The notes beneath the pieces are model-generated. The model ran no database searches and had not been told where the DNA came from. It saw only the letters and a program-made list of their open reading frames with translations. DNA of 61,324 nt, filler included, from Dirinaria sp. TL-2023a (Eukaryota): NCBI GenBank assembly GCA_051941275.1. It is 5 parts of 5 records of this genome, joined end to end, with 100 filler letters (N's around TTAATTAATTAA, not from the genome) between each part and the next. Parts side by side here need not be neighbours in the genome. Positions count along the whole stretch, not along the records: positions 49,165 to 61,324 come from JAVEBF010000788.1; 4 more parts are not named here. One strand, 5' to 3'. Shown here piece after piece: positions 2,078-61,324 of this stretch. Made by a program: the position numbers and the translations under genes. Within the stretch, counting starts at the first letter, position 1. Every line of letters starts with the position of its first letter.

Positions 2078-3829
2078 CTACCAGCCTGCAACTTCATTCA
2101 TTCGAACTATCAAACCCCCTCTCGGCTTCGCTGTGATACCTCCGGAGATGTCCAATGATACGTCCGGGTCCCGTAATTCCATCTCGAATCTGCCAACCAA
2201 ACTGGCCAATAAACATGAGAACTCCGCCTTAGCGAAGGCTTGCCCGATACAACTCCGGGGTCCATGTAAGAATGTCAAAAAACTGTAGTTGCTTTCCGCG
2301 CCGCCACTGTTAGCCCTTCCGGGCCCCATCCAGCGATCAGGATTGAAGTTCGCGGCATCTTCGCCCCACAGCTCTTTGGAGTAGTGTACGGCCCATGGGC
2401 AAATGACAATCAGTGTGCCAGCAGGGACGAACTGACCCTGGATGCTGGAGTCATGAGCGGCTTCGCGAAGAGTTATCGAGACCGGCGCCCAGACGCGGAG
2501 TACCTCATTGCACACAGCGTTGAGAAAGGGAAGTCTGTCCAGTAGATCGGAAGTGACTGTAGATTCGGCGTCATCGATTGAAGGCAAGCAATTGCGAATC
2601 TCTTCACGCAATCGAGTTTGATATTCCGGATGCCGGCAGAGAAGGTAAACAGCCCAAAGCATAGCTGTAGCTGTCGTCTCGTGTCCCGCCGCGAGGAAAG
2701 TCATGCACTGGTCAACAAGATTGTCGTCGGTGAAACCGCCAGATTCGAGAGCGACCGAGATGATGTCCTTGCCACCTTCTTTTCGTGCAAGTTTCTCTTT
2801 CTTCTGTTCAATTAATTGCCGGCAGACTCTTCGGATCGAGGCAATGGCAGTTCGCATCTCATCGTTTCGTTTCACTGGGAGGCTCCGTATAATCCAGAAA
2901 GGCAAGAAGAAAGTCATGATTCCGAGGGTCCGAGCTTGCTTGTTTGGTTGAAAAATGGATCGATATACCGATGCAAGCTCAGCATCGGGGTTTTGTATTG
3001 CTTGGAAGTCTTGACCCATCCCGGCTAAACCGATGATGTCGAGCGTCGCGCGGCTCGCCCAGTGACCGAACTCGATAGATGGAGCTTTTTTGGACTCGGC
3101 CGTAGCTTGCTCTCTTTCTGCTTGTAAGGCGGACTGTATTGCTCTCACCATCTCGCCAGACTTCGACCAAAAAATGGGATACAGATCCTTAATATGCCTA
3201 AAGGCAAAGGCTGGCGTGAGGTTTTTTCGTTGGCGCTGGTTAAGGCTGTTAGGGATTCTCCCTTCTTGTGGATTCTCTTACGCCGTACCTTGTGTTCATC
3301 GCCCTCGGCCAACAAGACACCAACGCCCAAAAGCCGTGCTATACTTTGCCTGACGCTACGAGGCTTGATGAAATCATAGCTCTTCTGGGACAGGACTTCT
3401 GCGAGCGCCTTCGGGCTTGTGGGCATCAGCCGGCTTGCGTTTCCGAGGTGAGTATAATGAATAAGGCCGTCATTGGGAACCTCGTTGATCCATCTCTGCA
3501 TAGGCACACCGGACGGTTCTTTGATTATCGCCCGGAAATGGCCGTAGAAGGGGTTTGCTCCCTAAGGTGGAATCCCCAGTCAGCAGTCGAGTCGGTGAGC
3601 AAGGCCAGCCCAAAAAACCTACAGCTGGAGAGGGTAGATGGCGTAAAGGGTTGAAGAATCTCGGATAGATGAACACAGACCACAGCAATCCCATGCAGCT
3701 CTGCACCAGAAAGAGCGACAAAAAAGCTCGGAGATACGACGCCGATATAGACCATTGTGGAACGAACTGGACACACAGTACGGAGCCAGCAACGGCAGTG
3801 AGCGCGATGGTATTCCACGGGATAGCCAT
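2078..3829 (-). CDS. Cytochrome P450 monooxygenase, 3 exons
   Basis: N-terminal membrane anchor, I-helix AAGHETT, ExxR (EVLR), PDRW and heme motif FLHGPRSCIG. Two GT-AG introns (~3236-3289 and ~3563-3622) restore one frame. Confidence 0.95.
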
Positions 3830-4377
3830 AACTTTCTAGATCTTGAGGATGCACTCTTTCGAGATACCTTAAAAATAATAAACGCTTGCTCGAAAAACGT
3901 ATAATTAACAGAGAATCCGAATGGAAGGATCATTTAAAATGCAGAAAAAGCACAAAAGGTGCTGCCTGTGCCGAGGCATATCCAAAACACAACATCGAGT
4001 CGCTGACTCGTATCACCTTGATGACGGTATTCTGTTCGAAGCTCGCAAGCGGTCAAGCTTGACTGTTGCTCCGCCGCCGCCGGCGTAATCCTTTGGGGAG
4101 GGGCATATCGGGCAAACAATTGGCCTTCTTGGCATGCCGAACGATGAATTGCCTCGGCAGTATCTAGTGCTGCGAGATCAGGCTTACCTTAGGGTTTTGT
4201 CCAGAGTATCACCAAGAACAGGATCGGAGCCGACTGCAATTCTACTCGTAGCGGCTCCAAAAAAGCTCTCATGTACATAAGCCCAACACTACGTTACACT
4301 ACGTTACACTGGCGTAAGGTATTTGTACTCGTACCATCATTGTTGCTGCTCGTCCATCTGTTGCCCACTTCATTCCT

Positions 4378-6093
4378 TCACTCCGTCGCGTTCTCGCCAA
4401 CCCCGTCCCCCACCCACATCCTCCTTAACATGGCATGCTCACTATCCTTTTCATCTTCGTCATCTTCCTCCCCCCTTCCGACTTCGAACCTCACCCTTCC
4501 CCGACTAGACGGCCTACTCTCCACGCTTTTCCCTACACTTCCTACCTTTCCCTCCCGCGTTTCCCTCTTATCCCGATCTCCCTTCCCGTCCCTTTTACCA
4601 CCGATTAAACCCCTTGTCTCCAACCTCTTCACAGCTTTCGCAAACACATCCTCAAAGCGCTGCGCGTTCCTCAGCTCCCTTTCCGCCTGCGCATACTGTT
4701 TCCGACGTCTTTCCAGTTGGTTCTCTGTGCCTCCAGCACCATCGACACCGACTTGGGAATTGGAACCCAGGAGATTGGTTGGCGCAGATTTCTTGGCTGC
4801 ATCATGATTGACGGGGTTCATGCGCTGAAGGTCGAGCTTCAGCTGGGTCATGGATTTGGAAGGCGCCTTGGGCGTCGGGGGATCGAAGGGTGAAGCACGC
4901 AATCTGCGACCATGGCGGGGACGAGGCGAAGGCGGGGACGAGGAATGTGACAAGGATGCGTTAAGGCCAGAGTGTGTGAGATTAGCGGCTGATTGGGCGC
5001 GGCGAGCCGCTTGACGGTGGCTGGATGGGGGGGATGAAGTGGGCGAACGTGATCTTCTATGCTGTTCTTGATGGAGAGCCGCAAGCGTAGATTGAAGGTG
5101 CGATATCGAAGCTGACGCGGCACTGCCAGATCCAGAGGAGCCGGTGGGATGAAGAAAGCGGGAAATGCCGTCTGGCGGTAGAGAAGGATCCGTGGGGTTG
5201 GAGGCTGAGCCGTGATTTATGCCTGCAAAAGCGGGAGACGCATTGGAGCCGGTGGGAGTTATGGTAGCAGAAATAGAGGATAGGTGCGGTGTCGCATTGT
5301 GCTTACTTAGGATGCGCGATGTCACGGCTCCTGCGTTTGGCGGGCGATTGTCGTGGGTTAGAGGCTGCCGTTGCTGTGGAGAACGGCCGTGCGCGAACTC
5401 AAGATTTTGCGCTGGCGGAGACTGAGGCGGTGAATGAGGCAGATTCGGTGGGGAACGTCCAGGTGGATCGTCTGGGGATGGTAGATCGGCAGGTTGGGGC
5501 AGCTTCTGAACAATAGGAGCCTGCAGCATCACCTCAGGCGTTGGGCTTTCCTCGGTCCACTCTTCGTCCTGGCAGTCGCTCCCCACGGAGAACTTGGGTT
5601 GCGCTTTCGATGTTCTCTGGTTGTCTCCCCCCTTCTTCACATGGAGCACCTTCTCCGAGCGACCGCCTTTGCCTAGCTTCGCCGCTGAGCCATCGCGGTG
5701 TTGTAGAGCTATACCAGATGAGCTTTTCTTCATCGATGCCTTTGAGCCCGTCCTCGGCAGGCTAAGATATGAACTGCTGTGGTCCATCTGTTGAGTGACC
5801 GGACTTGTAGGAGGCGTCTGCGACTTCCTTCGCACATGGTGTTTCGACGGGGTTTCCTCACTATGCGCCAGACCTTGCTTTGGCAGCCGATTCAGATTCT
5901 TGCCGTATGAAGGCACTCTGCCATGAGGATGTCGGCCATGGCCCACTGCGTGCATTTTATGCAGCCTCTGGGAGGACCCTTTCTGCGACGTTGAGATGAG
6001 GCCCGATGGCGAAGCGCGGGATATAGAGTGCGAAGATGAGTTTCGATCGGTCAATTGAGGTCGCTTGAGGGAGGCGGCGGCGCGCTCAGCCAT
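4378..6093 (-). CDS. TORC1 subunit Tco89-like, intrinsically disordered protein
   Basis: 571-aa single-exon S/P/H-rich ORF. SMTQLKLDLQR followed by helical RRKQYAQAERELRNAQRF resembles the conserved Tco89 block (SRTQQKLWLQR-like). Confidence 0.65.
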   Translation of the reverse strand: MAERAAASLKRPQLTDRNSSSHSISRASPSGLISTSQKGSSQRLHKMHAVGHGRHPHGRVPSYGKNLNRLPKQGLAHSEETPSKHHVRRKSQTPPTSPVTQQMDHSSSYLSLPRTGSKASMKKSSSGIALQHRDGSAAKLGKGGRSEKVLHVKKGGDNQRTSKAQPKFSVGSDCQDEEWTEESPTPEVMLQAPIVQKLPQPADLPSPDDPPGRSPPNLPHSPPQSPPAQNLEFAHGRSPQQRQPLTHDNRPPNAGAVTSRILSKHNATPHLSSISATITPTGSNASPAFAGINHGSASNPTDPSLPPDGISRFLHPTGSSGSGSAASASISHLQSTLAALHQEQHRRSRSPTSSPPSSHRQAARRAQSAANLTHSGLNASLSHSSSPPSPRPRHGRRLRASPFDPPTPKAPSKSMTQLKLDLQRMNPVNHDAAKKSAPTNLLGSNSQVGVDGAGGTENQLERRRKQYAQAERELRNAQRFEDVFAKAVKRLETRGLIGGKRDGKGDRDKRETREGKVGSVGKSVESRPSSRGRVRFEVGRGEEDDEDEKDSEHAMLRRMWVGDGVGENATE

Positions 6094-12203: not shown

Positions 12204-12303
12204 NNNNNNNNNNNNNNNNNNNNNNNNNNNNNNNNNNNNNNNNNNNNTTAATTAATTAANNNNNNNNNNNNNNNNNNNNNNNNNNNNNNNNNNNNNNNNN
12301 NNN
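12204..12303. other. Artificial contig spacer (N44-TTAATTAATTAA-N44)
   Basis: Identical 100-nt spacer occurs four times; the 12-mer gives stops in all six frames. Confidence 0.98.
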
Positions 12304-18515: not shown

Positions 18516-21500
18516 ATGGCTGCCCCAGCAGAGATTGCTGCGTAAGCGTTCAGCACGCCTTGAAAAAGCACCTAACTGACCCAATTATCCTAGGTCGCTC
18601 CCGCTCGAGGAGATTCCAGTCAAACTCCGCTGCGGAGCGTGTACTCAACTGGCTCTTGATGCATACCGTACACCATGCTGTGACCAGTCCATCTGTGAGA
18701 CATGTACGCAATATCTGCGCTGGACTTGTATCATGTTGCGGGGCTCTGACTACTAGCCAGGTCAAAAATCTCTCGGTCCATTTTGCCCAATATGCTTGCA
18801 CGAGCCCGTGAATGCAGATGACTGTAGACCTAACAAAGCTCTGCGCACCACCGTTAAAGTTTTTATCAAGAAGAGAGGCCATGATAAACAGGAGGCCGTC
18901 AAAAAAGAGATGGCCACCAAAGCGTCTCTTGCTTCAGCAACCCCTACTGGTGCCAAAGACGACGTGAAGTCTGTTGACCAATCTTTTCAGCCTTCGACGA
19001 CGCCCGCCACGCACGTTGCCGCTGACGCAGCTGTCAGCCTCTCGTCAGTTCCTCAAAGGAATTCCGAAGCCTCATCAGCATCACAATTACAATTGGGGAT
19101 TGAGCCCAAGGCTAATGGGGATCTTTCGTCATTGGAAGCGCAGAAGGATATTGTGAGACCCTCTGTTGAAGTAAGCTCCCAATAATGACCTTTCGCCAGT
19201 AAAGGAAGGCTGACCGAGTTAGTCCGGAAACCAAGATGCTGTAAAGCACGAGAGTGAAGATCAAGCTGGCCCCACGAATGGAACGACAGAGCAAGGAGAT
19301 AAGGGTGAGCAAAGCGTTGGAAAGTCCCAGGTTCCAGAAAGCCAGCCAAATCAGGAGCAAATGTCTGCCATGCCCGAACAGCAATGGGCGGCTATGAACG
19401 GGCCCGTGCAAGGCATGAACAATGGTAGCTTCGGATTTGATGGAATTAATGGTGGGCTTTCAAACATGGGTTTCGGCAACGTTGCAGACTTCAACCAAAT
19501 GTTGCAATTCATGCCAAATGCCATGCAGAACAACATGATGGGCATGCTTCCGAACATGATGTGTAAGTCGACCCAACGGCCCATTTCCAGCGGCTGTTGC
19601 TAACCCTAAATGAAAGCTATGCCAGGCATGGGCATGGACCCCTTGGCCATGGCTCAGGGTATGTACGGTGGTATGAATGGGCAAGGTATTGGAATGAATG
19701 GAATGAACGCTGGTATGGGCTTTGCCAATGGGCAATTGGCGTTTGGAGGGTTCAACGGTCAGCCCGCTTCGTGGAACGGAGTCCACAATAATTACAATCA
19801 AAATACATATGGCGGTCATGGAAATGGTCAGGTTGGTGACTATGGCTCCAACACAGGTTATGGTGGATATAATATACCACAAGGAAACTTCAACCAGATG
19901 AATCAGCGCCAATTTCCTAATAATGATTTCCAGCACGGATATCACGGACAAGGCTTCCCAAACCGGGGCCGCGGCCGCGGACGTGGCTATCAAAATTACG
20001 GCCGTGGCCGAGGCGGCTACAATCAGGTAAACTCAGCTCACCAGGCTAACTTTGAAGCGTCCCCCTCTCAAGTACCACCACAGGTTGCCGCACTCCAAGA
20101 CCCAAATCAGCAAGTGGGCTCCTCGAATCAGGAGCAAGCAGACGGGATCATTCGACGTGGATCGCCTGTCTACGATACGGAAGCCCGCACATCAGCTGAT
20201 GACTTCTCTAAATCGTTGAATCCTGGCGATGCCGAAGATCACATTGAAAGTCCTCGCCAAGAGCCAAACAAGCAAGATAATGACGCGTCAAACGAGACTG
20301 CGGAGGCTCCACCAAATGTTGAAGGGGAACCGGCTATAGACTCGTTGACGAAAGATGAAGCACCGGAAAAGCCATCTGCTAGCCAGCCAGCCACTTCATC
20401 AGACCAAACTGAGATAGAGACTACTAAAAATGACAGTGCGACTGCACCTTCGGTCAAAATGCCGCCCCCACCTAGCCCTGTAGTACCAACAGGTCCTGCT
20501 GCGCTTTCGTCAGCTGATCATTCTCAATTCTATGACCACAACTCTAGAGGACGAGGTCGTGGGTTCTATGGTGGCGCTGTTAGTTCGCGTGGTGGAGCAC
20601 GCGGTCGTGGTACAGGTTATGTACCAAATGGTGGTTCTGCTCATGTATCCAACGGACAGCCTCCACTAGTTTCTCCAGTTACTCCTATTACTGCTGCAGA
20701 ACCCAAGGGACTCGGCGTTGAGGGCGCACCGAAAGGTCCAAAGGCGATGAGAGAAGGGTTACCCAATACAGGTGCCAGTGCTGGCGCAAAAGGCTTTTCA
20801 ATTGTGGGCCGTGCTTCAGCGGCTGCTCAAGCTCGCACCAGTGGCCACACTAGATCGCGGAGGTATGTTCTCTTCCGCGAAACACCTTCGGCTTATTAAT
20901 TTTTTTGTACAGTCCAAGTCCTAGTCGATCGCGCTCACGCTCGCCTCATCGCTCACATCGCCATCGTCACCACCGACACCGGTCTACAGATAGCTCATAC
21001 AGTAGCGATCGAGATCGAAAGCGAGAACGTCGCCACCGACATTCACGAAGATATGATGACGACGATCAGGCTGATGATCAAGAATCGAAGGCTGCGGATT
21101 CTTCATCGAAACGATCATCACATCGTCACCGAGCTGAGGATAAAGATCAAGAATCTGGCCGAAGCAGTCACCGATCGCATCGATCTCACCGCGACAGAAG
21201 CAGAAGACGTGATGGCGACCACCACTCCTCGAGGAGGCGCTCACGGTCCCCTGTTTTTGAGGCCGAGAAACCTCAGGTCACTAACGGTACGCCCCATATG
21301 AACGGTGTCCCGCCCACAGGACCTAAAGCAGATCGGCAAAAGGCCGAGGAACTGACATCTTCGGGCCGTAAGAAACGTGAGAGGGAGGAAGAAGATTATT
21401 ACCGAGAGCGGAAACGCTCCAAAACAGATTTTGTGGAGCCTGGGGAGAATGGTGACGATCGACGAAACTCGAAACGTGTTCATCGAGAGGATGAAGATAA

Positions 21501-21807
21501 TTCACGCAGTAAGAAGTCGCAAAATCTTGAAGGAAAGGAGACGGTGAAGTCGGAACCCCCAACCCCGAAGAGCGAGGTGGACGCGCATACCCTTGAGCGA
21601 GAGGCTCGTAATCGAGAGCGTATGCAGAAGGAGATGCAAAGACGCTCGGCCATGGACGGCAAAGGTGCGGCGCCGAAGCGTAAGATGAGCGGCACCGGTG
21701 TCAGTCAGGGAGGGAGACGTGTCAGCTACAAGTACGAAGATGAGGAAAGCAGCGAGGCCAGAGCTTCTAGAGTCGAGAACGAGCGAGAGGCTGGCAGGTG
21801 GGGATAG
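18516..21807 (+). CDS. RING-finger protein (Mpe1/RBBP6-like RING) with M/N/G-rich region, RGG boxes and RS/RD-rich C-terminus, 6 exons
   Basis: Splicing gives LRCGACTQLALDAYRTPCCDQSICETCQKSLGPFCPICLHEP...PNKALRTT. GT-AG introns join ORFs 18796, 19361, 19610 and 20905 in frame. Confidence 0.8.
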
Positions 21808-24501: not shown

Positions 24502-24601
24502 NNNNNNNNNNNNNNNNNNNNNNNNNNNNNNNNNNNNNNNNNNNNTTAATTAATTAANNNNNNNNNNNNNNNNNNNNNNNNNNNNNNNNNNNNNNNNNNN
24601 N
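24502..24601. other. Artificial contig spacer
   Basis: N44-TTAATTAATTAA-N44. Confidence 0.98.
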
Positions 24602-36797: not shown

Positions 36798-36897
36798 NNN
36801 NNNNNNNNNNNNNNNNNNNNNNNNNNNNNNNNNNNNNNNNNTTAATTAATTAANNNNNNNNNNNNNNNNNNNNNNNNNNNNNNNNNNNNNNNNNNNN
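36798..36897. other. Artificial contig spacer
   Basis: N44-TTAATTAATTAA-N44. Confidence 0.98.
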
Positions 36898-49064: not shown

Positions 49065-49164
49065 NNNNNNNNNNNNNNNNNNNNNNNNNNNNNNNNNNNN
49101 NNNNNNNNTTAATTAATTAANNNNNNNNNNNNNNNNNNNNNNNNNNNNNNNNNNNNNNNNNNNN
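49065..49164. other. Artificial contig spacer
   Basis: N44-TTAATTAATTAA-N44. Confidence 0.98.
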
Positions 49165-57460: not shown

Positions 57461-58747
57461 TAAGGTAGTCATGCCTACGCCAGGTGCTGGCTCAATGGAG
57501 AGGCACGGGGGCCAGAAATCGCGCTTAAACCTGGAATTGGCCCGGATGGGTCCTTCTCCACCGTTTCTGAGCATGATCCTGGACATAATTCGAGCCGTAG
57601 GCCTTGCAGACAGGGGACTGTGTGCTCCTGAGATATAGGTCCAGGGGTCCGGAAATCAGTACCTTATGATTACCCCTAACCCTAGGCAGTTTTAATAGCG
57701 CGGAACGAACATAAAACATGCTGCATGAGGTACGAAATACTTAGCTCAACCCAAGGTAAAGACACACTTCACACACTTCTACCAAAGGTTTCACTAGCAT
57801 GCCTATAGCCCGCGTGAAATGCACAGGTCTATCCAGTTTTGCGTATCGTATCGCTTGTACAGTAGTCCTTCGTTATAAAGAATCGCATATAAGGAGTCTT
57901 AGTCTATGAGGAGTCAAAAGTGTCGGAATCCTGATCTTGTATTTGAAACTGGGGAGTTTCAGCCTGTAAAGAAGCTGCTTTGCGTTTGCGATAATTAGCT
58001 AGTACTCCTCGTAAAGCGTATGTAGTGGGGGTCCGAGGGCAGGATAGCACAAATCCAAATTCCGGCAAGAGACTGCACTGCTCGACCTTTAGCGATATGT
58101 TTTGGGTCTCGCCACAAGGTATACGTCCGTGAAAGGAACTCTCTCCGATACGACTTGCCGAAGGATGAGGCGTTTATAGTTAGTACTCCGATCAGTTTTG
58201 GAGATGGAATAGGGAGAGAGGTCAATGCCATGATAATCAGCCGCTCAGAGGGCTTGTCAGGAAATCTTTGTAGTAAGCCTTTTTGCTTCACAAGTGAGCG
58301 ATTGAATAGGAAGACAGAGCGAGGCGAAGCGGGGCGATGGCAGTATCCAAAGACAATAAAGAAGCTCGTTCCACAGAAAACCATACAAATAAGATCTTTC
58401 CCTTTCTCGGCAACGATGGGTTGCGTTTCAAAGGATCAAAAAAAGTGGCGTAAAACTTGAAATCTAGTGCGAATCGTGGCACTTGTGAATTTTATGGCCG
58501 GTTTTTGAATTAGACTTAATTTCCTTTCCCATGAAGGGCTTTTAACATGAAGAATTACTTCACCTTATTAGCCTGCTGGATGGGTTTGGTACAGCTCTTA
58601 CAGCTCCTAGCTGTGTAGTGTATGATTTTATTCGATGTTGTCATGGCAGTCAAAGGATTAGGACCTATGGTAATGATGGCATTTTCGACGCCGACTCGTC
58701 AATGCCCTACAGATATCGATCCAGGCCCAGCTCTAGTCCATCCTGCG

Positions 58748-60144
58748 CTACACCTTGGTGATTGCCCAGATTTCACCAGTCTCATCCGAACTCATGAAGA
58801 GTCTTCCGGCCTTGTCAAAAGCGAGACCAGCGGGTCGGAAACAATCTTTATTCCAAACGTAGGGACGTATCTGACCACATTTGTTGACGTCTACATTGCT
58901 CATAATGTCGATGACTGCGGTCTTGCTGTCCGACTTAGCTACCGGAAATCCATGTGCAAAGTCAATTTTGGAAACTTTATAGCCCGTTGACCCATTGCGA
59001 TCCCTGATCGGACACGATTTAGTTCGTTTGCACATTAATAGGATTTAAGTACTAACCAGCTGCCATGAAAGCTGACATATGCTGCAGTTCCGTCTGCTGT
59101 AAACTTCAAATCGATTGGAGCGTTATGCGGAGGGAGTGTGAGGAGAGGAGCCGCTCTCTCTTTGGCGCAGACTGCATCGTTGATGGTATCGTTCGCCGTG
59201 AATGTATCGTTCACATCACCTACGAGAAATTGATTACCAACCACCAGGTCGCCTCTATTGGGAATGGCATGCACGTCCCAAGCAGCGTGACAGTATGGAT
59301 ATCCGTGATTGAGGCCTTGGTTCAGATCATTTGCTTTACCGATTATGCCGTGATAGTTTAGTTCGTCGCCTGGATTGTTCTCGGAAATATCCTTGCCGTT
59401 TCTCGTCGCATAATCCATGCCCATCTCAACACTGTAGATGCCGCCAGTCAAAGGGTGCTCCGCAACTCCGACTGAGTTGCGTAAACCCCATCCAAGGAGT
59501 TTTCCAGTTGTGTTGAAATTTTGTGTAGCCGTTTGATTCTTCTGTACGGCAAATGACTTGATCTGGCAGTGGCCGGTGGTTAAGTCTAGAGAATTAAAGT
59601 CTACGTTGGACTGGCTACCACGGCTAACAATTAAGGTATTTTCCTGTTTCTTTGCGAAAAGCAGCGTTCTGGTAATATGGTCGCCATCGCTAGTATGAGC
59701 GATATCTACAATGTTGCTGCCGTTTCCGCTCACACTACGCTTCGCAGCATCGTAGGGCCAAGAGAAGACCGCCTCCGCTGAGGAAGCATACAGTGTTTTG
59801 CCATCGCTAGAGAGGGTAATGCCGTGTGTAAGATCGACGTTCTGAATGACATCTGATTTCTGAGAGACTTTCAAGCAGTGGTCAACCTCATCCTGAATGC
59901 CTAAGCTTGTGATGCCGACTTGCTGTTGGACCACAAGAAGGTGACCATGGCTGTCGAAGATGAGTCCGCGTGGTTTTGTGAGGTTTGAAGCAATAAGCTG
60001 GGCTGTATATCCTGGTGCGAGAGAGGGCGCCGGATAGCTGGGGTGTAATGCAGACGCACACGGACTCGAAGCCGGTGCTGAGGCAGCTTCTGTGGCCGCA
60101 AATACAAGGCAGATGAACGAGTGCAGATTTTTTCGTAGATACAT
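58748..60144 (-). CDS. Secreted PQQ-dependent sugar dehydrogenase (CAZy AA12, glucose/sorbosone dehydrogenase beta-propeller), 2 exons
   Basis: Signal peptide, PRGLIFD, HGITLS, HITRTL, GWGLRNSVGVAEHP, GYPYC, HNAPIDLKF, FHGSW|DR and CFRPAGLAFD..GRLFMSSD.TGEI. Confidence 0.9.
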
Positions 60145-60785
60145 GTCAATGTGGATAGCTGGCGGAGTTCGATTGGAGGTTATGATTACGGCTTTTGCAG
60201 CGGGTCAGGTGGTTGATATTGACGAAGAGGAACGGAAGAAAGAGAGAGTGCCCGCAGGTAATAATCCATTGCTTTGAATGGGCAGCAGTCCAGGGTGCAG
60301 GACGCTGCGCAGGCGGGTCGCGAAATGAGGCGGCAGGATGAATGGGTCTTTGCTGGGCCTGCTCCGTCATACTGCACTGCTGCTAGAGGGAAAGAGTAAT
60401 AGTTGTAGTAGCTTCGGTACCTAGGGTAGAAATGGCTAGCTAGTCGTTTTGATAAAAGGTAGACTTAACTAAGGTAAGGTAAACAGTCGCCGCCGCCGCC
60501 GCCGCCAGCTCTCTACCCGCACCTATCATCATGAAATTGCGCGGCTGTACAGCGCGTAAGATCCTAGCTAGCCTCATGAACGCCAAGACTATCGTCTAGT
60601 TATCTGCAGGCGCACTTTGGCAAGCACGGGCAGGATGCAGATAGGAATGGCTTGTCCAGGGAATAATACCTTAGTACTCCGTAATTTTGGGCGTCCCCGC
60701 ACCTCGCATCCCAAAAGTTGTCCGTCAATTAGGTCGCTCACATTTGCATCAGGCAGGTGTTATAGATACCTTAGGAGGCCTTGGC

Positions 60786-61324
60786 GTGATGATATAATTG
60801 TCTATATAGTCTTTGTAAACAGTAATTATTTGATACATGTGTAAATAATAAAATGATGTAGAAAACAAATTTTGAAAGCAAAACAGCGATATAGGAGGAA
60901 CTCGATCATATTATCAATTAAAACTACCTTTGAATTCGAAGAGCTACTGAGGGTTACCACTGACGATGAGGCCCGCGATCCACCCTGACCGTCGCGATGA
61001 GATGGACGCGATCGGCGCGACGTCGACAAGTGAACGAGACATCATCGAGACGTCTTCGCAGAGAAGAATATCAGAATCGAGCGAAATATTGAATGAGATA
61101 AATAAGATTGTGAGACTTTATGAGTTTAAGAGAATCAATGTCAGCGAAATGATGTCGATGACTGAACTGCACAATCTGTTCAACATGATTCGCGCAAAGA
61201 CGCGTCAGAGCGAAGTCGCAATTATTTCGATCACACAAAATGATAACGACGCGATGATTGCGCGACTTAAGAAGATGATCAGCAGATTTGAAAAAGCTGT
61301 ACAAAAGAAGAAACACGTGTAGAA
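60786..61324 (+). mobile_element. Probable 5' end of a hypermutated transposon (LINE ORF1/gag-like), cut off by the contig end
   Basis: Abrupt AT-rich stretch followed by an ATG ORF (60966) with coiled-coil character and no Gly, Pro or Trp after residue 17; complete loss of CC/GG; lies at an assembly break. No diagnostic domain visible, so family is uncertain. Confidence 0.5.

Follow-up and report, generated by a model that had tools for sequence, protein, structure and literature searches.

The textbook genome defence of fungi, RIP (repeat-induced point mutation), has a preference for CpA that is treated as near-universal. In Neurospora the order of the contexts is CpA>CpT>CpG>CpC, and at a CCA codon classical RIP would strike the second C. 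A different kind of retroelement editing is carried out by AID/APOBEC enzymes, which read 5' neighbours; the base that APOBEC3G deaminates, on minus-strand cDNA, is the 3' C of CC, and strand-specific GG-to-AG changes are left. According to the RIPCAL paper, CpA was dominant in the species analysed, CpC>TpC being one of four formal possibilities (PMC2621366). Section 9 of a survey published in 2025, spanning 1,239 fungal genomes, states that RIP-like defences share the CpA preference; that survey screened enriched, not depleted, k-mers, and 'CpC' occurs 0 times in this section (PMC12543289). For a lichen fungus, RID and DIM-2 homologues are reported, as are sharp 'ripped' blocks defined by GC content alone (PMC12542154), and for Basidiomycota (Pucciniomycotina, Rhizoctonia solani AG8) CpG-/TpCpG-biased repeat hypermutation is described (PMC4014442). 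A search of open-access full text, with subscription papers outside its scope, found no report of CpC-dominant hypermutation.

The window, by which we mean the whole stretch of 61,324 nt that was analysed, filler included, is made of five pieces of ~12.2 kb, and neighbouring pieces need not adjoin in the genome. The genes on them are of fungal type (P450, TCP-1, HECT, Vps16, Na/H exchanger and AA12-like oxidoreductase), and the host of the segment described below is a lichen-associated fungus. The N spacers between the pieces make up CC/GG-free runs of 104-125 nt. The features considered are collected in Table 1.

Table 1. Features of the window, with positions counted along the whole stretch.
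Feature	Position	Strand	Remarks
CC/GG-free run	61015..61324	.	310 nt; stops at the cut end of the fifth ~12 kb piece
AT-rich CC/GG-free stretch just upstream	60784..60894	.	111 nt, GC 0.25
Putative element 5' end, CC/GG density normal	60895..61014	+	~15 CC/GG in 120 nt
ORF, 118 codons + TAG stop	60966..61322	+	Predicted N-terminal coiled-coil-like part of LINE ORF1
TAG stop	61320..61322	+	Aligned to Tyr in P0027
AA12-like (TrAA12) oxidoreductase gene	58548-60416	minus	Adjoins the LINE segment
(CGC)n microsatellite	60489-60507		In the spacer separating the AA12 gene from the retrotransposon
Spacers N44-TTAATTAATTAA-N44	12204-12303, 24502-24601, 36798-36897, 49065-49164		

A sequence-only reading had reported that 61016-61324 contains neither CC nor GG, with about 51 C and 70 G by hand count of 61021-61320 and roughly 25 occurrences expected. 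The segment indeed lies inside a run that begins at 61015, directly after the last GG at 61013-61014, and the hand count was close: the bases of 61016-61324 number A117, G73, T66 and C53, and 0 CC/GG were observed vs ~26 expected (9.1 for CC and 17.2 for GG). The block may continue past 61324. CA/TG and CG were found to be abundant, as had been noticed, with 21 CA observed vs 20.1 expected, 21 TG vs 15.6 and 25 CG vs 12.5. Both TC (18 vs 11.3 expected) and GA (45 vs 27.6) are in excess, a sign that the base changed was the 5' C of CC, and TA is low (11 vs 25.0).

The next longest real CC/GG-free runs in the window measure 114, 111, 99 and 97 nt. In 300-nt sliding windows the CC+GG observed/expected ratio (o/e) was 0.07 for the segment, 0.44 for the sliding window at 60901 and 0.61 for that at 60801; once these two are set aside, as they reach into the segment or sit directly upstream, the lowest value was 0.47, in an Arg/Ser-rich ORF. 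The ratio (CpC+GpG)/(TpC+GpA) was 0.0 in the segment vs 0.82 elsewhere in the window.

Such a run might also be found in an ordinary single-copy gene or exon encoding a helical protein free of Gly, Pro and Trp, with a codon bias avoiding CC and GG: the ORF is open, and coiled-coil segments are often without Gly and Pro. Residues 18-118 of the window ORF contain no Gly, Pro or Trp. This part of the earlier description of its composition stood, as did the richness in Ser (12) and Glu (11), while Asp (6), named as a third abundant residue, was only moderate. The probability of no Gly, Pro or Trp in 101 aa was 1.2e-6, the longest stretches free of these residues in nine window ORFs being 25-41 aa. 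Under a codon-aware null, in which residues 18-118 were fixed and codon usage was taken from the same nine ORFs, 16.5 CC/GG were expected and P(0) was 5.9e-9. The CC/GG-free run is non-random at the nucleotide level, beyond amino-acid composition. This probability, conditioned on the protein, and membership of a multi-copy family of LINE ORF1 sequences make the ordinary-gene explanation highly improbable. The same holds for its variant, classical CpA-type RIP, since the indices are RIP-negative in the segment (TpA/ApT 0.37; (CpA+TpG)/(ApC+GpT) 1.31) and CpA/TpG are kept.

Sequence comparison identifies the segment as the 5' end of one copy of a LINE, a non-LTR retrotransposon, with a gag-like ORF1. 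The intact element L001 has an ORF1 of 517 aa, and the window ORF matched its residues 1-109 with 32% identity (E 7e-10); in a tblastn search that returned 57 matches the best 25 of 57 all lay at an ORF1 start. In L001, ORF1 is followed by an ORF2 with an APE endonuclease (Exo_endo_phos) and RVT_1, which is the arrangement expected of a LINE; the window holds the ORF1 N-terminus alone. L001 thereby resembles fungal non-LTR elements, with their gag-like ORF1 bearing Cys/His knuckles and their APE+RT ORF2, as do the distant ORF1 relatives (30-43% identity), of which the longer forms end in three Cys/His knuckles. The window differs from these elements in having 118 codons only, and the clade would be Tad1/I-like. 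Pfam gave no match for the window ORF or its relatives' ORF1, and ESM Atlas queried with the relative P0011 offered no lead, its best score (0.87) being to clusters that are unrelated. The stop codon of the window ORF would be premature in comparison with relatives whose ORF1 runs on; an intron donor could instead lie at this point, the window ending 2 nt later.

Close relatives of the window ORF number 7 (P0001-P0004, P0026-P0028); they are 57-81% identical to it and all come from short ENA contigs. The LINE family is multi-copy, the copy number being taken from relatives and not from the window's own genome. One further match, P0006, is a 641-aa Gly/Pro/Ala-rich protein with 11 tandem repeats that matched query residues 8-37 only, and it is probably spurious or unrelated.

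The segment is preceded by two stretches of different character. A second CC/GG-free stretch had been pointed out at about 60785-60893; it is real, but it is not independent evidence, since 4.0 CC/GG are expected in it (P ~0.02), it resembles other AT-rich stretches in the window, and alone it is not significant. It may be an older relic, an idea suggested by the unmutated LINE copies L003 and L007, which adjoin older CC/GG-free blocks. Between it and the run, positions 60895-60965 form a putative short 5' UTR, followed by ORF1 codons 1-16.

Two of the close relatives allow the changes to be read almost directly. P0028 and P0027 differ at 14 of 80 residues and are otherwise identical; all 14 differences are of transition type, P0028 has the C/G state at 13 of the 14 sites, and 12-13 of them are of CpC/GpG type. 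The CpC/GpG changes comprise Pro>Ser (five times), Thr>Ile (three), Gly>Asp (three) and, where the window codon reads CCC, one Pro>Leu. The window itself has the T/A state at 11 of these sites (residue 11 onward, except residue 17); residues 3, 6 and 17, all upstream of the CC/GG-free run, have retained the C/G state. The direction of change, C/G to T/A, is settled by the states of the intact outgroup L001-L003, which have Gly or Pro at positions 11, 23, 25, 53, 54, 56, 61 and 64, the window residue there being Asp, Glu, Ser, Phe or Arg. At protein level, the relatives differ from the window mainly by CpC-type transitions.

These changes were also assigned to contexts by transition-only parsimony over eight sequences with the real codons of the window. 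With the C>T/G>A direction presupposed and non-synonymous sites alone considered, 22 of 32 window-lineage changes were of CpC type, followed by CpT (5), CpG (3) and CpA (2), and all 22 inferred CpC changes now read TC or GA. Pro became Ser, by change of the first C of CCN, and not Leu, even at a CCA codon. We tentatively infer that the window copy was mutated in place and did not inherit the mutated state of an ancestor. Such an ancestor may have passed on part of the CC/GG-free state, given that the window ORF is open for 118 codons and that the close relatives except P0028 are also poor in Gly, Pro and Trp.

JGI metagenome contigs were scanned with alignments of both subfamilies. The close-subfamily alignment gave 593 pattern matches and 0 confirmed relatives. 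With the distant-subfamily alignment 235 relatives were confirmed, and 80 loci from among them were retained (L001-L080); this sister subfamily has ~32-36% protein identity to the window ORF, and its metagenome host may differ from the window's organism. In the window-locus search, blastn of the window against the sister loci at 1e-10 gave no match beyond one 77-nt ORF1 match. CC+GG o/e was <= 0.12 in 64 of the 80 loci (pooled, 380 observed vs 20,103 expected over 397,454 nt), and 12 of 80, with lengths of 1.6-7.6 kb (maximum 7,560 nt), had zero CC/GG. Unmutated loci were 5 (L001-L004 and L007, GC ~0.44-0.52), and one assembly series contains both mutated and intact copies. In 26 pooled loci (178,701 nt) only 10 CC and 19 GG remained; o/e was 1.52 for CA, 1.55 for TG, 0.53 for TA, 1.46 for both TC and GA, and 0.60 for CG. 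The pooled blocks were RIP-negative by the classical indices (TpA/ApT 0.54; (CpA+TpG)/(ApC+GpT) 1.70). The earlier expectation that standard TpA/ApT indices would miss the signature is thus borne out here as it is in the segment.

In order to follow the changes at DNA level, 66 mutated copies were compared with intact L001 over a gap-free colinear 969 nt of ORF1. C>T (5196) and G>A (9261) greatly exceeded T>C (704) and A>G (1676), and the two strands were similarly affected, with C>T in 39% of C and G>A in 45% of G. Among the 66 copies, 54 are distinct (<97% identical), and as many of the 80 loci may be one insertion sampled in related assemblies, the independent events are fewer than 66. Tabulating C-to-T changes by neighbour, as had been proposed as a check, placed CpC at the top and CpA lowest: the mutated fraction was 0.81 for CpC, 0.40 for CpG, 0.35 for CpT and 0.16 for CpA. 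The 5' base had no effect, N[C]C being mutated at 0.70-0.77 for every 5' base in L005. Where a reference CpC had retained its C, the 3' neighbour was now T in 1118 of 1187 cases. That CpC changes first is seen from the least-mutated affected copies, L005 and L006, in which the fractions were 0.74-0.75 for CpC, 0.22-0.24 for CpT, 0.15 for CpG and 0.03-0.04 for CpA. In-frame stops per 323 codons were 6-10 in mutated copies and 0 in L001-L003.

Loss of C:G pairs on both strands and in repeats only could also be produced by a CpC-preferring DNA methyltransferase acting on heterochromatic repeats, followed by spontaneous deamination of 5-methylcytosine with no dedicated mutator. As would be expected of such decay, CpG o/e falls progressively from 0.83 to 0.23 as GC decreases from 0.34-0.42 to <0.22, with CA/TG steady at 1.3-1.6 and TpA/ApT at <0.9; no sign of classical CpA-to-TpA RIP was seen across the GC classes of the sister loci. 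However, CpC o/e is already 0.00-0.02 in the least decayed copies, in which only 3-4% of CpA is changed. Decay would be expected to leave many intermediates, and among the 66 copies only those like L005 and L006 are of this kind (5-6 residual CC/GG in 969 nt). The P0027/P0028 pair likewise looks burst-like, with 12-13 CpC-type changes, one of CpA type and none else. On this evidence we regard methylation decay as an unlikely origin of the CC/GG loss, slightly more so than the editing of cDNA considered below.

The borders of the CC/GG-free blocks follow the repeats. In L031 the LINE fragment occupies 2797-4287 and the CC/GG-free run 2929-4482, the flanks having 20-40 CC/GG per 250 nt; in L070 the fragment occupies 2839-3900 and the run 2911-4026. 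In both loci run and fragment coincide within ~70-200 nt and the flanks are normal. Altogether 10 loci have a CC/GG-free block with normal flanks, and L031 likewise has one despite a whole-locus o/e of 0.78. Normal DNA in the window extends up to 61014. Blocks may take in other RT fragments in opposite orientation. In the sister subfamily, essentially all CC/GG is removed from both strands in a manner dependent on the 3' and not the 5' neighbour, over whole elements or multi-kb blocks, and the removal ends at repeat edges. Relative to an ORF1 start at 2797, the CC/GG-free run starts at 2929 in L031, at 2829 in L033 and at 2911 in L070, L011, L012 and L018, so the first 30-130 nt of ORF1 escape in several loci, as do the first 49 nt in the window. 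This 5' escape may be due to 5'-truncated partners or to an edge effect. At L003:1-712 and L007:1-848, old CC/GG-free, AT-rich blocks directly adjoin intact unmutated LINE copies, an arrangement from which it follows that new insertions land in or beside already mutated compartments.

The 5' escape can also be read in another way. If an AID/APOBEC-like cytidine deaminase acting on single-stranded DNA (or RNA) edited retrotransposon cDNA, as a restriction factor that is not repeat-induced, the part of the cDNA made last, which is the element 5' end, would be expected to be spared. A LINE does have an RNA/cDNA intermediate, and comparison of P0027 with P0028 shows 10 C>T on the sense strand vs 3 G>A. 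APOBEC3G editing shares with the present case a CC target, retroelement victims and a loss of coding capacity via C-to-T/G-to-A changes. The 3' neighbour, however, sets the specificity here, and a 5'-neighbour-defined, strand-specific pattern was not found: Pro>Ser and Thr(ACC)>Ile mark the 5' C as the base that changes, in place of the Pro>Leu expected from change of the 3' C. Both strands are affected to a similar extent and to saturation. The saturated blocks include inverted, non-colinear RT fragments adjoining the element, and partial fragments are mutated to their edges with normal flanks. For these reasons editing of cDNA seems to us an improbable source of the signature.

Also ruled out were UV dipyrimidine damage (TpC persists in excess, and only repeats are affected), homopolymer-compressed assembly (AA and TT are normal) and reverse A-to-G/T-to-C editing of CC/GG-rich copies (L001-L003 have 0 stops vs 6-10, and the outgroups agree).

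We consider it probable that CpC-directed C:G-to-T:A hypermutation acted on the LINE copy of the window and stripped it of CC and GG. The proposal of the sequence-only reading, that repeats here were saturated by C-to-T changes in CpC context on both strands, gains support from the multi-copy family, the CpC/GpG transitions and the kilobase-scale signature in the sister subfamily. In the mechanism that we propose, the target would be a cytosine whose 3' neighbour is C, 5'-[C]C-3' being changed to TC and GG on the opposite strand to GA. With both strands saturated no CC or GG would remain, and Pro, Gly and Trp codons would become impossible, with Pro turning into Ser, Gly into Asp or Glu, and Thr(ACC) into Ile; CpA, TpG and CpG would be largely spared. 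A slower loss of CpG and CpT would come after the CpC step, with CpA, the canonical RIP target, least affected.

This pattern has much in common with RIP of Neurospora crassa and other Pezizomycotina. Both are fungal and change C:G to T:A on both strands, within repeats and with sharp borders, with a specificity given by the 3' neighbour; both can reach saturation, and transposons become AT-richer relics. The excess of such transitions over reverse changes and transversions was seen in the 66 copies compared with L001 and, at protein level, in the window copy. Action on both strands and confinement to repeats are evident from the lack of both CC and GG in the window and from the borders of L031 and L070. 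In contrast to RIP of Pezizomycotina, neither a preference for CpA nor a raised TpA/ApT or lowered (CpA+TpG)/(ApC+GpT) was found, CpA being the least mutated context: here the order is CpC >> CpG ~ CpT > CpA, TpA is depleted, GC settles near 0.30 and stops arise mainly at Trp codons, so that long ORFs persist. The hypermutation of basidiomycetes is similar in being a RIP-like C-to-T process in repeats with a non-CpA context, and dissimilar in that its target is CpG/TpCpG, whereas here it is CpC with no 5' effect and CpG is secondary.

Our somewhat preferred reading of the agent is a RIP-type, homology-triggered defence acting on DNA, through a RID/DIM-2-like enzyme of the cytosine-methyltransferase type with a changed neighbour preference. 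We lean, by a similarly modest degree, towards the view that lichen-associated fungi have a hitherto undescribed repeat-induced mutation with CpC in place of CpA specificity, which wipes out all CC/GG of a transposon within a few generations. A RIP-like process with a CpC target would mean that the machinery can be re-set to another neighbour specificity, and would offer a natural handle on the determinants of that specificity. The enzyme, be it an unrelated deaminase or a paralogue of RID/DIM-2, would then be a natural CC-specific mutator of cytosine in double-stranded DNA. Standard RIP indices and AT-rich k-mer screens would miss genomes defended in this way, so that the distribution of RIP would be underestimated; surveys would class them as RIP-free or merely 'low-GC', as their TpA/CpA balance looks normal and long ORFs remain. 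CpC-directed mutation would also account for the intermediate-GC (~30%) 'ripped' compartments of lichen fungi (PMC12542154). Kilobase CC/GG-free runs would serve as a simple diagnostic and might assist the binning of fungal repeats from lichen metagenomes. The signature generalises beyond the segment and is easily tested at genome scale.

Mutated sister copies resemble the window ORF somewhat more than intact ones do, L031, L033, L050 and L080 showing 35.8-36.4% identity to it and intact L001-L003 29.9-33.3%; if one mutation rule drove both subfamilies, this greater likeness is the convergence to be expected. CpC-type mutation makes stops mainly at Trp codons, and heavily mutated copies among L005-L080 retain ORFs of 100-380 codons. 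Gene callers report such ORFs as proteins (e.g. P0011, P0017-P0019), and with long ORFs surviving in mutated copies, protein databases carry many Lys/Asn/Ile/Ser-rich pseudo-proteins.

Elsewhere in the window, the two long ORFs of 19610-21807 matched nothing in Pfam; one is rich in Gly/Asn/Gln and the other in Arg/Ser/His. The latter, at 20905-21807, is the ORF with the CC+GG o/e of 0.47 mentioned above and has high CpG; we considered it as a second CC/GG-poor case and rejected it as ordinary low-complexity coding sequence. A relative of the AA12 gene with 95-97% identity was found in 4 public lichen metagenome/metatranscriptome runs. In the same 4 runs the LINE ORF was overlapped by only one contig, of 248 nt and from an RNA library, which covers 61068-61213 with 23 differences and then diverges, and which bears on neither copy number nor transcription. 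The AA12 gene has a 53-nt intron (59003-59055) that is spliced across in contigs from three RNA-labelled runs of one sample, and the degree of sequence identity indicates that the relative in these runs probably belongs to a related strain or species.
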